Shown here piece by piece: positions 12,777-17,534 of a stretch of 48,946 bases of DNA. A model generated the notes under the pieces. It did not search any database. It worked only from the letters and a program-made list of their open reading frames with translations, and was not told the origin of the DNA. This DNA is from an uncultured Candidatus Saccharibacteria bacterium (lineage in GTDB: Bacteria; Patescibacteriota; Saccharimonadia; Saccharimonadales; JAGQNJ01), in contig CAZMFO010000004.1 of assembly GCA_964565615.1 (NCBI GenBank), positions 1-48,946 of the forward strand. The letters are read 5' to 3'. How positions within the stretch are numbered: position 1 is the stretch's first letter; every line of letters begins with the position of its first letter. The translations under genes and the position numbers were made by a program.

Positions 12777-13337
12777 ATGGCTAGACTACCAATACCGGGA
12801 CAAGACGGAGGAGTATGGGGCAACATTCTTAATGAATATCTATCTGTATCTCACGAATCAGATGGCACTATTAAACCAAGTGCTATACCACCATCTTCCG
12901 GAGCTACAGGCGCCACAGGAGTTCAAGGAGCTACAGGTGCACAAGGCCCAGCTGGCCCTCAAGGAGCAACCGGAAGCTTAGGAGTAACGGGCGCAACAGG
13001 TGCAACCGGCATTGCTGGCCCCCAAGGAGCAACAGGAGTACAGGGCGCTACCGGTTCTGGATCTACTGGAGCTACAGGAGTTCAAGGCTCAACCGGAGTA
13101 CAGGGCGCAACCGGCCCTCAAGGCGCTACCGGCCCGGGAGTAATCTCTGGTGGTACTACTGGTCAAGTATTAGCTAAGGCTTCAAACCTAGATAACGATA
13201 CGGTATGGACAACCGTTCCTAGCAATCCGGTAACATCAGTCAACGGCAAAACTGGCCCAACTGTTGTACTGACCGCACCCGATGTAGGAGCCCAACCCGC
13301 AGGTTATTCAAGATCATTTTTATTAGGAGGTATGTAG
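12777..13337 (+). CDS. Collagen-like fibre protein with phage tail-fibre-type motifs
   Basis: 17+9 Gly-X-Y triplets, then '[17 protein letters not shown]' and '[19 protein letters not shown]' motifs that I recognise from phage tail fibres. Confidence 0.75.
12900..13139 (+). repeat. Collagen-like Gly-X-Y repeat (GAT/GVQ/GPQ-rich)
   Basis: Residues 42-121: 17 triplets, a GS interruption, then 9 triplets. Confidence 0.95.
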
Positions 13338-13338
13338 T

Positions 13339-13668
13339 ATGGCAACAACCGTAAAAGTATTAGGGCAATCAGCTCCGTCAGCAAACACAGACACCACTCT
13401 GTATACAGTACCGGCATCTACTTCAACAATTGCCAGTTCGGTAATTGTATCTAACAGAGGAGCTACTAGTGCTACATTTAGAGTAGCTGTTCGCGTTGGG
13501 GGTGCCCCTTTAGCGAACCAGCATTACATCTTTTATGACATAGCCATTCCTGCTAAAGATTCTTTTGTCGCCACAATTGGAGGAACCTTCTCGGCTGGCG
13601 ATGTCATTACCGTTAGAGCATCAACAGCAGACCTTTCGTTTAATCTATTTGGGGAAGAAACTGCGTGA
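13339..13668 (+). CDS. Phage-type small beta-rich protein
   Basis: SD aggagg. 'MATTVKVLGQSAPSA.TDTTLYTVPAST.TI.SS..VSNRG..ATFRVAVR...YDI.IPA.DS...G.T..AGDVITVRAS...SFNLFGEE' resembles a small protein family I recall from tailed-phage structural regions. Confidence 0.7.
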   Translation: MATTVKVLGQSAPSANTDTTLYTVPASTSTIASSVIVSNRGATSATFRVAVRVGGAPLANQHYIFYDIAIPAKDSFVATIGGTFSAGDVITVRASTADLSFNLFGEETA

Positions 13669-14966
13669 GCATAAGGTGGGCATCAGATACGCCACAAAGC
13701 ACTCGGCTTGTTGGGCAACCTCAAAGTAGTACTAATGATGACTCTTGGGTAAGACCAGCCGATTGGCTTACATTACCAACTGTTAACATAGGTGACGAAA
13801 AGGTGGTGCTGCTGGTCGCTGTGTGGGACCTGTCGCACAACTGGTTGGCGTTCGCCTGTACGGGCGCTTACACGGTGGATTGGGGGGACGGTTCCGCACC
13901 GGCGAACGTCGCGTCGGGTGTGAAGGCGTCACATGATTTCGCGTGGGCTGATATCGATTCGGGCACTTTGAGTGTGCATGGGTATCGGCAGGCGATCGTG
14001 ACGATCACCCCGCAAGCCGGGCAGCATCTGACGTCGTTGTCGTTCTCTCAGCCGCATGTGGGTGCCGGGGGTGGGGTGTCGAACGGGACGTTGGAAGCCG
14101 TGTTGGCGGTCCCGTATGCGACATCGTTCACGTTCTACAACAGTGCCACGGTGGCGATGGACAACCGCTATTTGGAGCATGTGTCGATCGTGGACGCACC
14201 GTCGCTGATAACGGCGTACCAGATGTTCGCGGGCATGAATGCATTGCAGAAGGTGGATGCACCGGATGCGACAGGCGCATGGACCAGCACAATCACCAAC
14301 TTCTCCCAGATGTTCAGCAACTGTTCTTCCCTGCGTGAGGCCCCGTTGTTGAACACGTCCGCGGGAACCACCTTCTCCCAGATGTTCCGCAACTGTTATT
14401 CGTTGCGTGAGGTTCCGGCGTTGAACACCACAGCGGGAACCAACTTCTCCGGCATGTTCAACAGCTGTTCTTCCCTACGTGAGGTCCCGTTGTTGAACAC
14501 CGCCGCAGGAACCAACTTCTCCGAAATGTTCCGCAGCTGTTATTCCCTGCGCGAGGTTCCGGCGTTGATCACCGCTGCGGGAACCAACTTCGTCAACATG
14601 TTCAGCGGCTGTTCTTCTCTGCGTGAGGTCCCGGCGTTTAACACGTCCGCGGGAACCAACTTCTCCGGCATGTTCTACGCCTGTTCTTCCCTGCGCGAGG
14701 TCCCGTTGTTGAACACCGCAGCGGGAACCAGCTTCTCCCAGATGTTCGGCAATTGCAACAGTTTGCATTCTGCGCCGCTCGCAGGCACCCGATACAGCAT
14801 CAACTACACCAACTGCTACCTCGACGCCGCCGACCTCGACGCCATCTACACAGCGTTGGGCACCGCAGCCGGAGCACAAACAATCACCGTCACAGGCAAC
14901 CCCGGTATCGGCAGCGACGACCCGTCAATAGCGACCGCCAAAGGCTGGACCGTAACCGGCTCGTAA
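13665..14966 (+). CDS. BspA/DUF285-like leucine-rich-repeat protein, phage-tail-associated type
   Basis: N-terminal WVRPADWLTLP, PKD-like 'YTVDWGDG', 24-aa repeats (MF.xCxSLREVP..NT.AGTNF), C-terminal 'TITVTGNPG...DPSIATAKGWTVTG'. GTGA overlap with the upstream gene. Confidence 0.8.
   Translation: MSIRWASDTPQSTRLVGQPQSSTNDDSWVRPADWLTLPTVNIGDEKVVLLVAVWDLSHNWLAFACTGAYTVDWGDGSAPANVASGVKASHDFAWADIDSGTLSVHGYRQAIVTITPQAGQHLTSLSFSQPHVGAGGGVSNGTLEAVLAVPYATSFTFYNSATVAMDNRYLEHVSIVDAPSLITAYQMFAGMNALQKVDAPDATGAWTSTITNFSQMFSNCSSLREAPLLNTSAGTTFSQMFRNCYSLREVPALNTTAGTNFSGMFNSCSSLREVPLLNTAAGTNFSEMFRSCYSLREVPALITAAGTNFVNMFSGCSSLREVPAFNTSAGTNFSGMFYACSSLREVPLLNTAAGTSFSQMFGNCNSLHSAPLAGTRYSINYTNCYLDAADLDAIYTALGTAAGAQTITVTGNPGIGSDDPSIATAKGWTVTGS
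14301..14762 (+). repeat. 72-bp (24-aa) tandem repeat, 6 full copies plus 1 partial
   Basis: Units start at 14301, 14373, 14445, 14517, 14589, 14661 and 14733 (exact 72-bp period). Confidence 0.97.
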
Positions 14967-14996: not shown

Positions 14997-15024
14997 TTGA
15001 CATTATAAAAAAAGTTCTTATAAT
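14997..15024 (+). promoter_or_regulatory. Consensus sigma70 promoter with no downstream CDS
   Basis: Exact TTGACA (14997-15002), 16-nt spacer, exact TATAAT (15019-15024). Predicted +1 near 15031. Confidence 0.8.
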
Positions 15025-15030
15025 CAGATT

Positions 15031-15556
15031 AGTTTGGTAGAGTCTTAATTTAGATTCCTAAACTGTACATTGACAGATGTAAGATACACATTAGGCAATG
15101 ACTACAGGTATTACAAATGTAATGATTGTAGCCATTGTCTAATAATTTTAGCTATAGATCTAAAGTCTGGAGATTCTGTAGTTCCACCGCTACAGAAAAC
15201 ATACGGAACCGCTCCTCCGTATGTCTCCAGCGCAAGTTGGGTGTCTGCCGTTTTTGGCAGAACCGCCTCCCCGCCAGCGGTTGTGGGAATCACGCACCCA
15301 ACTTGCAAGTTCTGGAACCCCATCAAGAGAGTCAACCAAATAGGTTGAGCCATTTAGGTAGGTTCCAAATAGATCGTGGGCCCCACGGCTACTGGTTCGC
15401 CAGTTCCGCCTTCCACCCATAAGCCGTGGGGTCCACATAGGCGTAAATTGCGCTAAAATGCAAAAATTTGTTGAGAGGCGTTTTTTAAGTTGAGGACTTC
15501 TTGTTCTCCTTTTCGCTACTCCAAATTACTATCTTACATCTGTCATCTTTTTCTTT
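15031..15556 (+). ncRNA. Candidate large structured non-coding RNA (about 525 nt), family not recognised
   Basis: Promoter directly upstream. 5' hairpin starts at the predicted +1. Perfect 16-bp closing helix 15071-15086/15530-15545, more than 12 nested helices, UUCG tetraloop, G-U pairs favouring the + strand, GC about 60% in the core versus about 23% in the flank, U-tract 15546-15556. Confidence 0.8.
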
Positions 15557-15767
15557 AGTTTGATATTAGCTCACGAATTGTCGTGGTTTAATATAAAACT
15601 ATTGTTCTTAGCAAGATGAGAAAATAACCAGATTGTCTTTACCAAAGAGGTCTTACGATTTGTGGTTGTTTTGGTGGATCACTAGCCTTCTAAAAAACAT
15701 CAAAAACAATCGGCTCTTGGCTACCCGACTTTTTGTTTGATTAAAGAGGGTGTAAACTATTGTTAAA

Positions 15768-17534
15768 GTGAAGTACCTAATCAATATCTTAAAACTGTCA
15801 TCTTCTCTATGGAGATACTACTTAGCCATTAGCCTATTAAGTGTTTTGGTGGCCCTATCTGGGCTGGTTACTCCTTTGCTTTCTGGGCGAGCAATTGATC
15901 TATTAAGGTCTGGCACAGATAGTTTATCAACCCTGCTGGTGATTTCTGTCTTGATATTTTTAGCGGACATATTTTCTACTTTGGTGTCTAACTATGGAGG
16001 CTATTTAGGTGATGTGATGACATCTAAGCTAGAGCGTATTTTGAGTACACGGTACTACCAGCACTTGCTACAGTTGCCACAGACCTATTACGATAGCGAA
16101 CTTTCTGGCAAGATAATAAATCGCTTAAATAGGTCCATTACTCAAATAGGCAATTTTGTCCATATGTGGTGTAATAACTTTTTGCAGTTTGTTTTTAGCA
16201 CCATTTTGTCATTAGGCATTATTGCTTACTTTAGCTGGCCAATAGCTTTACTTTTGTTTTTGCTGTACCCAATTTATGTATTTATGACCATTAAAACTAG
16301 CGGAAAGTGGTTAAAATATCAGGCAAAAATTAACAAAAATTGGGATATCGCCTCTGGCCGATTTGCCGAGAGTATTACCCAGATTAAGGTAGTAAAAAGT
16401 TTTGTTCGCGAGGCTTCTGAACTGCGACATTTTGACAAATACTACAAAAAAATTACCAGTATTGTTTACCCACAGTCTAGACTTTGGCATAACCGCGATA
16501 TTCAGCGTCGCTTGATATTGAATATCATTTTTTTGGGAGTGTACGCGTTGATTTTTTATCAGGCTACCCAAAATCAATATACGCCCGGGCAGGCTGTAAC
16601 CTTAATTTTGTATGCTATGCAAATTAGAATTCCAATTTTTACCATTAGTTTTTTGGTAGATAACACACAGCGAGCTATTGCCGATAGCAAAGATTATTTT
16701 GATGTTATGGCTATTAAGTCGCAAATTTTAGACCTACCAAATGCGACCACGCTTAAAGTTAGCTCTGGAGGCATTGAGTTTAAGGATGTAAGCTTCTCGT
16801 ACGGCAACGCACTAGTTTTAAACAAAATCTCTCTTAAAATTAAGCCCTCATCAAAAATTGCTCTGGTTGGCGAGAGTGGAGAGGGTAAAACCACTTTAAC
16901 AAATTTGATAATGCGTTTTTACGAACCGAACTCGGGACAAATCATCATTGATGGGCAAGATATAGCTACGGTAACACAAAGTAGTTTACGACAGAACATT
17001 GGTGCGGTTTTTCAGGAATCGGCATTATTTAGTGGAACGATAAAAGAGAACATTTCATACGGTAGGCCAAACGCTAAACAAAAAGATATAGAAGAAGCAG
17101 CCAAAATGGCAAATGCACATCAGTTTATTAGCGAACTAAAAAAGGGTTACGATACAGAGATAGGCGAGCGTGGCTTAAAGCTCTCTGGCGGGCAAAAACA
17201 ACGAATAGCTATTGCTAGAGCACTTCTTAAAGACGCCCCGATACTAATTCTTGATGAGGCGACCAGTAGCTTAGATAGCAAGAGTGAGCGAATGGTGCAA
17301 GAAGCCCTTGAGAGGCTGATGGAGAACAGGACAACCATTGTTGTGGCTCATCGTTTAAGTACTATACAAAATGTTGATACCATAGTTACGCTCAAGAAAG
17401 GCAAGATAGACGAGGTTGGCACACCAGCGGAGCTAGCAAAATCGGGCGGTATCTATTCTCGCTTACTAGAGTTGCAACGCGAGGGTGTTTCTTCTGGCAA
17501 AGAGCGTTTACAAAAGTTTGATATCGCCAGCTAG
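15768..17534 (+). CDS. ABC exporter, fused permease/ATPase (MsbA/multidrug-like)
   Basis: N-terminal TM domain, GESGEGKT, LSGGQKQR, ILILDEATSSLD and AHRLST. Confidence 0.93.
   Translation: MKYLINILKLSSSLWRYYLAISLLSVLVALSGLVTPLLSGRAIDLLRSGTDSLSTLLVISVLIFLADIFSTLVSNYGGYLGDVMTSKLERILSTRYYQHLLQLPQTYYDSELSGKIINRLNRSITQIGNFVHMWCNNFLQFVFSTILSLGIIAYFSWPIALLLFLLYPIYVFMTIKTSGKWLKYQAKINKNWDIASGRFAESITQIKVVKSFVREASELRHFDKYYKKITSIVYPQSRLWHNRDIQRRLILNIIFLGVYALIFYQATQNQYTPGQAVTLILYAMQIRIPIFTISFLVDNTQRAIADSKDYFDVMAIKSQILDLPNATTLKVSSGGIEFKDVSFSYGNALVLNKISLKIKPSSKIALVGESGEGKTTLTNLIMRFYEPNSGQIIIDGQDIATVTQSSLRQNIGAVFQESALFSGTIKENISYGRPNAKQKDIEEAAKMANAHQFISELKKGYDTEIGERGLKLSGGQKQRIAIARALLKDAPILILDEATSSLDSKSERMVQEALERLMENRTTIVVAHRLSTIQNVDTIVTLKKGKIDEVGTPAELAKSGGIYSRLLELQREGVSSGKERLQKFDIAS

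Follow-up and report, generated by a model that had tools for sequence, protein, structure and literature searches.

In Gram-positive bacteria, the C-rich seeds of RsaE/RoxS and of the RNAIII hairpins capture purine-rich strands resembling the Shine-Dalgarno (SD) sequence, and sponge RNAs for CsrA carry GGA. Proteins also recognize strands of the former kind: short C-rich single strands are ligands of KH domains in other organisms, and cold-shock and Rho domains are classic binders of pyrimidine-rich or C-rich RNA. In the literature, no validated regulatory RNA was located for Saccharibacteria or other CPR bacteria. The genomes of these organisms are small, so that a strongly promoted RNA of 520 nt represents a real investment for the cell.

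An RNA of this size, uncatalogued and lineage-restricted, was found on the + strand (about 15031-15545) of the window, i.e., the whole stretch of 48,946 nt analyzed here, originating from an uncultured Candidatus Saccharibacteria bacterium with a genome of 815 kb (99.9% complete, about 40% G+C). The RNA resides in a gene-free gap of 800 bp, flanked by a DUF285/BspA-type LRR gene (13665-14966) on one side and an ABC transporter gene (15768-17534) on the other. It is preceded by a perfect sigma-70 promoter (TTGACA-16 nt-TATAAT, 12/12 matches, 14997-15024, + strand), which places the transcript start at about 15031; a consensus promoter is located at the same place in every homologue. A terminator-like hairpin followed by a U-rich run (15571-15594, + strand) represents a possible 3' end of the transcript, and relatives have a hairpin at the same place. 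The assignment to the + strand follows from the promoter shared by all homologues and from G-U pairs within covarying helices. The G+C-rich centre of the RNA folds at -148.4 kcal/mol, corresponding to z = -8.2 against shuffled sequences. Open reading frames of the core showed flat GC1/2/3 values, were not preceded by an SD sequence and were not kept in frame in relatives, and the possibility of a coding RNA was therefore discarded. In summary, the structured RNA is real, promoter-driven and non-coding.

Comparison of the window and 12 homologous loci with Rfam yielded no family at gathering scores, and matches at E-values of up to 10 did not exceed chance level. Since RNase P RNA, tmRNA and 16S rRNA are all encoded elsewhere in the genome, the RNA is none of these three. 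6S RNA was also considered and rejected: the model RF00013 found nothing in the genome, and 6S RNA is a rod of ~180 nt with a central bubble, whereas the RNA studied has a multi-branched fold of 520 nt.

Regarding the genomic setting, an island of elevated G+C content (51-58% compared to ~40% genome-wide; window 12777-14966) comprises a collagen-repeat gene, an ORF of 109 codons and the DUF285/BspA-LRR gene. Together with the RNA, it represents an insertion between pheT and the ABC transporter gene, which are directly adjacent to each other in two other genera of the family; the island adjoining the RNA was probably acquired. The closest relative of the ABC transporter (15768-17534) was detected in one Saccharibacteria genome (52% identity), followed, as nearest named matches, by members of the Actinomycetaceae (Ancrocorticia and Lysinibacter; 43-60%). 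This similarity points to genes having been exchanged between the epibiont and the lineage of its host. For a neighbouring gene, Candidatus Saccharibacteria were the nearest named relatives.

To describe the fold, a partition function was computed on the whole RNA (15028-15550); all elements given below are on the + strand. The conserved 5' domain begins with hairpin P1 (15030-15065; alignment A1, model R1), featuring the core UUGAG...UCC and followed by the conserved (C/A)UUUGACAG. In alignment A1, P1 shows compensatory changes and G-U pairs that are compatible with the + strand alone. Closing helix P2, 16 bp long, is formed in the minimum free energy (MFE) structure by the 5' strand UGACAGAUGUAAGAUA (15071-15086) and the 3' strand UAUCUUACAUCUGUCA (15530-15545), and both strands covary across families. 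The long AU-rich hairpin P3 of the 5' domain (15090-15144) was likewise deduced from the MFE structure and from covariation, with G-U pairs fitting the + strand alone. A species-specific three-way junction (15165-15231), which has no counterpart in relatives, carries the loop-1 hairpin (stem 15174-15181/15190-15197, 8 bp) and the loop-2 hairpin (stem 15200-15207/15216-15223, 8 bp). The loop-3 hairpin (15261-15282), with the 6-bp stem AACCGC/GCGGUU, is species-specific as well. The conserved C-loop hairpin (15374-15437; alignment A3) consists of an outer stem (15376-15390/15422-15436) and a nested UUCG hairpin (15391-15404), beside which loop 4 forms a G-poor, C-rich internal loop of 17 nt on the 3' side.

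The conserved 3'-domain hairpin (15473-15521) contains GAGGCG (15475-15480) and the anti-SD-like CUCCUUUU, in which CUCCUU (15506-15511) belongs to the 3' strand of the hairpin and the two terminal U (15512-15513) stay unpaired in the MFE structure. All eight sequences compared share the same architecture, namely an outer helix, AAAAAG/CUUUUU or a variant thereof, GAG/CUC, and a terminal hairpin. Mimicry of the anti-SD by CCUCCUUU in the 3' domain of relatives was rejected, as this sequence is the paired 3' strand of the conserved hairpin. Likewise, a resemblance of the 3' domain to joined 16S rRNA ends (GAGUUUGA...CCUCCUUU) was dismissed, each match being short enough to be due to chance.

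The initial annotation had pointed to repeated C-rich motifs displayed in loops and linkers, and the segments it listed were all recovered exactly, namely UUCCACCG (15182-15189, loop 1), ACCGCUCC (15208-15215, loop 2), CUCCCCGCCA (15267-15276, loop 3) and UCCGCCUUCCACCCAUA (15405-15421, loop 4). The same applies to the two copies of UUCCACC, the five copies of CCGC, the CCUCC motifs at 15214 and 15266 (both of them partly within stems), and the positions of CGCCUC (15264) and GAGGCG (15475). Its description of the segments as single-stranded agrees with the partition function, which predicts mean unpaired probabilities of 0.77, 1.00, 0.94 and 0.93 for loops 1-4, respectively. Loops 1-3 are hairpin loops on stems of 6-8 bp and loop 4 is an internal loop; each contains 53-70% C and at most one G. 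(A/U)(A/U)CCGC is common to the C-rich hairpin loops 1-3, and UUCCACC was found in two of the four loops.

The statistical significance of this pattern depends on the measure applied. Among unpaired bases of the core, the C fraction (0.287) does not differ from the one obtained with dinucleotide shuffles (0.278 +- 0.023), indicating that the loops simply hold the C-over-G excess of the region (76 C vs. 56 G). The repetition of CCUCC and of 7-mers such as UUCCACC remained at chance level in 2000 shuffles (P = 0.086 each), and five copies of CCGC were less readily obtained (P = 0.013). Furthermore, four of the six large loops (>= 6 nt) contain at least 50% C, a result matched in 2% of 200 shuffles. 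Clustering of C in large loops and the five CCGC copies thus modestly exceed chance. Compared to other structured RNAs of the same genome, the RNA and six homologues contain more C among their unpaired bases (0.20-0.28 vs. 0.10-0.19 in RNase P RNA, tmRNA and 16S rRNA) and less G (0.08-0.14, with 8% in the RNA itself, vs. 0.19-0.25 in RNase P RNA and 16S rRNA), the tmRNA value for G (0.12) being within the range of the RNA family. Given a genome of ~40% G+C, the C-rich loops run against its composition.

Conservation of the loop motifs in homologues, which the initial annotation had proposed as a check, was confirmed for loop 4, while none of the homologues found carries a counterpart of loops 1-3. 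Five of the six species of the genus possess loop 4 as a C-rich, G-poor internal loop of 13-17 nt with 0-2 G and the motif CCUUCC[U/A]C(U)CC or UUCC(C)ACC, and in each of these species the C-rich strand follows a nested hairpin. Besides UCCGCCUUCCACCCAUA of the studied genome, the strands are ACAGUUCCCACCACUU (G005), UAAUCCCACCAGC (G001), CUUCCCUUCCUCUCCA (G003) and CUUCCUCUCCAGUG (G002). Of the 15 pairs of the supporting stem, nine show compensatory double changes (alignment A3); the base of the hairpin is conserved (UCGUGGRG...YCUCCACA), and the distal stem varies by compensation. Analogous C-rich loops were detected in two species of the sister genus (CCUUCCUCUCCC / AAUCACCCAUCCUUCCUCUCCC and CCUCCCUCUCCCC). 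In G004, a complete, single-contig genome, the loop-4 hairpin is deleted and the rest of the RNA is kept (L004:1496-1958). The G004 RNA is ~67 nt shorter than the G003 RNA, and the deletion junction lies between short UCUC-type repeats. The position, low G content and pyrimidine motif of loop 4 are kept while its stem covaries, which speaks for selection acting on the sequence of the loop as such, and, as judged from these alignments, loop 4 is the only one of the four loops that is demonstrably under constraint. The domain of loops 1-3 is unique to the studied species, the relatives featuring G-rich loops in this part (GGAUGGGGA, GGGC), and conservation of loops 1-3 cannot be judged because the relatives lack a homologous domain.

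The interior varies strongly even inside the genus. When the core was compared by BLAST, only the first ~50 nt were matched in relatives. Downstream of this match, a syntenic structured RNA was present in all relatives, with a common architecture consisting of promoter, P1, (C/A)UUUGACAG, the P2 5' strand, P3, a variable G+C-rich multi-branched core, the 3'-domain hairpin and the P2 3' strand. The covariance model R1, representing the 5' domain, matched in 8 out of 24 genomes of the family and in 14 out of 151 sampled genomes of the order, at times with two to three copies per genome, and in none of 150 genomes from other orders of the phylum. Every R1 match is directly preceded by a consensus promoter. 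Scanning metagenomes for the 5' motif resulted in 51 chance matches, none of which passed R1.

Helix P2 covaries across families (GACAAAUAGACAGA/UCUGUCUAUUUGUC, GACAGAAUAGAGAA/UUCUCUAUUCUGUC and GGCAGAUGAGU/ACUCAUCUGCC) and encloses between 420 and 980 nt. In other families of the order, the promoter, 5' domain and P2 frame small, mostly orphan protein genes with good SD sequences (L029:768-1433, - strand; L031:1662-2273, +; L033:1182-1475, -; L034:293-1026, +; L039:1652-2062, +). Examples of these cargoes comprise 221, 203, 136 and 97 codons and show a strong G+C signature by codon position (GC3 values of 0.61-0.97 vs. GC2 values of 0.24-0.39), and one of the encoded proteins contains the C-terminal domain of an RNA polymerase alpha subunit (E = 2.4e-9). 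In the studied genus and its sister genus, the cargo is highly structured and carries no coding signature. Protein cargo in other families and structured RNA here indicate that the 5' domain and P2 represent a general transcript module, with the core as a non-coding payload. An arrangement of this kind around both structured RNAs and protein genes points to an unrecognised module of transcript architecture in the order. Additional R1 matches were observed in G016 (contig 1) and G001 (contigs 4 and 18), and a second, tandem P1-like hairpin with CAUUGACAAGUG follows the first RNA of G016 (contig 22; L007 ~795-860), from which it was concluded that some genomes carry two to three cassettes.

The motif following P1, GGACUUUGACAG, resembles boxA at about 8/11 positions, and NusB is encoded in the genome. 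The boxA consensus GYUCUUUAANA is gamma-proteobacterial and also occurs in leaders of non-rRNA transcripts (PMC5725501). The rrn leader of the studied genome contains GGACUUUAAAAAUUGAG and GGACUUUAAAAA; the clearest rrn boxA, GUGUCUUUAGAAAAC, differs from the motif in the RNA, and R1 did not match the rrn leader. Assignment of the motif as a boxA is accordingly a tentative one. The 16S leader of the studied genome (L041:1296-1345) features a hairpin followed by GAACUUUGGACAGAUUC, closely resembling P1 and UUGACAGAUG of the RNA, and this P1-like stretch is missing from the rrn leader of G004. On contig 14, nusB (365-754) and a KhpA/B-type KH-domain gene (2571-2789) are located ~2 kb apart.

Regarding the function of the loops, the reading put forward here, which is possible yet far from assured and leans on the analogy to RsaE/RoxS and RNAIII, is that they pair in trans with purine-rich RNA. 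An RNA of ~520 nt, transcribed from its own promoter and closed by a helix, displays four nearly G-free, C-rich single strands on stable stems, loop 4 being a pyrimidine strand of 13-17 nt held open beside a small nested hairpin, to which the studied species has added three further C-rich hairpin loops. These strands may serve as docking sites (seeds) that capture purine-rich, SD-like single strands of the GGAGG/GGAAGG type in trans. The RNA with its strand and helices, the exposed loops and the conserved loop 4 are established by the data above, whereas the RNA nature of the ligand, like the target itself, is what we infer here.

Purine-rich ribosome-binding sites exist to be bound, as deduced from the 3' end of the 16S rRNA (...ACCUCCUUUCUAG) and from SD-like motifs preceding 28% of 718 crude ORF starts (vs. 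9% background), a value that roughly supports the earlier statement that SD-led genes are a minority. The multi-site antisense binding to SD regions proposed alongside it found no support: duplexes of the loops with 715 initiation regions were no better than those of composition-matched shuffles, neither on average nor for the top ten, in a comparison of limited sensitivity owing to crude gene calls. Nothing special was found among the four neighbouring genes as loop targets. In five related genomes, GGAGAGGAAGG, to which the conserved loop is complementary, occurred 27 times with at most one mismatch allowed, compared to 28 times for the reversed control, and, with crude gene calls, its sites did not share a common gene start across these five relatives. 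Duplex energies at shuffle level, the lack of enrichment of the complement and the loss of the loop-4 hairpin in G004 are points against docking in trans. An exact copy of GGAGAGGAAGG was observed in G006 (contig 1, 80994; L172:1501-1511), where it precedes the start codon (ATG) of an orphan ORF rich in G+C (MSDCTFSNHG...) by 5 nt; this site is a possible candidate target of the sister-genus C-loop or may belong to another cassette.

Alternatively, loops 1-3 and much of the C-richness might be a functionless by-product of C exceeding G in a modular and rapidly evolving RNA in which hairpins come and go, G being kept from loops merely because it causes misfolding. This explanation, which we regard as rather doubtful, would account for the unpaired C fraction and for the chance-level repeats of UUCCACC and CCUCC described above, for the restriction of the loop 1-3 domain to one species, with G-rich loops in the corresponding part of the relatives, and for the dispensability of the loop-4 hairpin in G004; moreover, the RNA adjoins an island of 51-58% G+C, from which C-richness could be inherited. 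It is at odds, however, with the loop-4 motif being kept in two genera while the stem covaries, and with the low frequency of four C-rich large loops among shuffles (2%), and unconstrained loops in a genome of 40% G+C should drift to A/U. A second proposal of the initial annotation, a multivalent protein sponge, would turn the loops into repeated protein sites, the RNA titrating or organising, e.g., a KhpA/KhpB-type KH protein. Such a protein is encoded in the genome (76.7 bits; contig 14, 2571-2789), the loops are presented on separate stable hairpins as in sponge RNAs, share (A/U)(A/U)CCGC with CCGC occurring more often than in shuffles, and include UUCCACC twice, and the searches for RNA targets gave no signal. 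The relatives, however, have no more than one or two loops of this kind, one species lacking the loop-4 type altogether, and the specificity of bacterial KhpA/B is not established. A sponge or scaffold function appears unlikely. Neither a cold-shock domain nor a Rho RNA-binding domain was found in the 99.9% complete genome, and a rut-like (Rho-binding) reading of the C-rich strands was rejected on account of the latter result.

Contacts of the RNA with itself, whether as pseudoknot, kissing loops or homo-oligomer as in ROOL, GOLLD and OLE, are quite improbable. The pseudoknot between CGCCUC and GAGGCG suggested earlier is contradicted by the modelled fold, in which both arms are paired locally: CGC (15264-15266) pairs with 15277-15279 at the top of the loop-3 stem (p about 0.9), and five of the six bases of GAGGCG pair within 15514-15519 (p 0.93-0.99), leaving A15476 unpaired, in a 3'-domain hairpin that is conserved in eight sequences. 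As one of three 6-nt complements between a loop and the rest of the RNA, the match is unexceptional. Kissing-loop oligomerisation, also proposed at the outset, is disfavoured since the C-rich loops cannot pair together, the only hairpin loop containing G is GGAAU (15286-15290), and no consistent partner was identified; a search for a conserved intramolecular partner of loop 4 was negative as well. A duplex of 5 bp is possible between GGAAU and the GUUCC of loops 1 and 4, and the conserved GGAUGGGGA loop of relatives reaches -14.3 kcal/mol with the C-loop in G003, but these duplexes are weak in other species (-8.8 to -9.7), and the G-rich loop is present in G004, where the C-loop is deleted, and absent in the studied species with its four C-loops. 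Finally, the loops might be antisense to purine tracts of the organism's own 16S rRNA, which would let the RNA dock on 30S subunits that are immature or idle. Within the 16S rRNA, the strongest duplexes were those with GGGGAGGAAGG, near position 1186, and GGAAGGUGGGGAU, in helix 45 beside the anti-SD. They are favourable for a sister-genus loop (-32.8 vs. -23.3 +- 2.1 in shuffles) and the G003 loop (-25.7 vs. -20.6 +- 1.4), and loops 3 and 4 of the studied species reached P about 0.03 against the 3' terminal 75 nt. However, significance was obtained for only 2 of the 11 loops tested, those of G005, G001, G002 and the second sister-genus loop not being significant, and loop 4 of the studied species was no better than shuffles at ~1186. 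A pyrimidine run of any kind is bound to pick out the longest purine run in the 16S rRNA, and both tracts are base-paired in mature 30S subunits. Docking on the 16S rRNA is regarded as highly improbable. An equally slim chance is given to the combined reading that the RNA is the non-coding payload of an undescribed modular cassette of the order and that the C-loop, CCUUCCUC(U)CCC or AUCCCACC, is antisense to the two 16S tracts. The cassette would consist of the consensus promoter, P1, UUUGACAG and the cargo-enclosing helix, with small orphan protein genes as cargo elsewhere; if this were true, an RNA docking on immature or idle 30S subunits would tune the ribosome supply of an ultra-small epibiont.

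Pairing of the C-rich loops in trans with purine-rich RNA, the reading preferred here, is best considered in relation to described RNAs. For the outer parts of the transcript, rrn-type leaders offer a parallel, since a hairpin and GGACUUUGACAG precede a strand whose pairing partner lies at the distant 3' end, so that the entire product is enclosed, comparable to 16S rRNA between its RNase III stems; in contrast to such leaders, the boxA match is partial, and the search of the genome for a Rho RNA-binding domain was negative. The RNA also shares features with the large ornate RNAs ROOL, GOLLD, OLE and the raiA motif, being a multi-branched, very stable (z = -8.2) RNA in the size range of 420-700 nt with covarying helices and a narrow phylogenetic range. 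It differs from them in matching no model, in its distinctive conserved 5' domain and closing helix, and in an interior that varies within the genus. Unlike the multimer-forming ROOL, GOLLD and OLE, it possesses no self-complementary or mutually complementary conserved loops, GGAAU/GUUCC (5 bp) being the only such pair. With the CsrB/RsmZ sponges, the RNA shares the recurrence of a short motif across several of its hairpin loops; however, this motif is C-rich rather than GGA, with 0-1 G per loop, and is present in 1-4 copies instead of about 5-20.

Compared to RsaE/RoxS and RNAIII, neither sequence nor structure homology exists, as judged by the lack of Rfam matches at gathering scores or at E-values of up to 10, the motif is CCUUCCNC(U)CC or UUCCACC instead of UCCC/CCCC, the conserved copy is an internal rather than an apical loop, and no target was found; relative to RsaE, its length is greater by a factor of 2-5, and a terminal helix closes the molecule. 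Nevertheless, the conserved, nearly G-free pyrimidine strand on a covarying stem offers a concrete, mutable handle toward the partner of the RNA. As in RsaE/RoxS and in loops H7, H13 and H14 of RNAIII from Staphylococcus aureus, several C-rich, G-poor loops are displayed on stable stems of a single RNA, which, like RsaE/RoxS and RNAIII, is independently transcribed in a monoderm-type bacterium and presents loops that are complementary to purine-rich, SD-like sequence.
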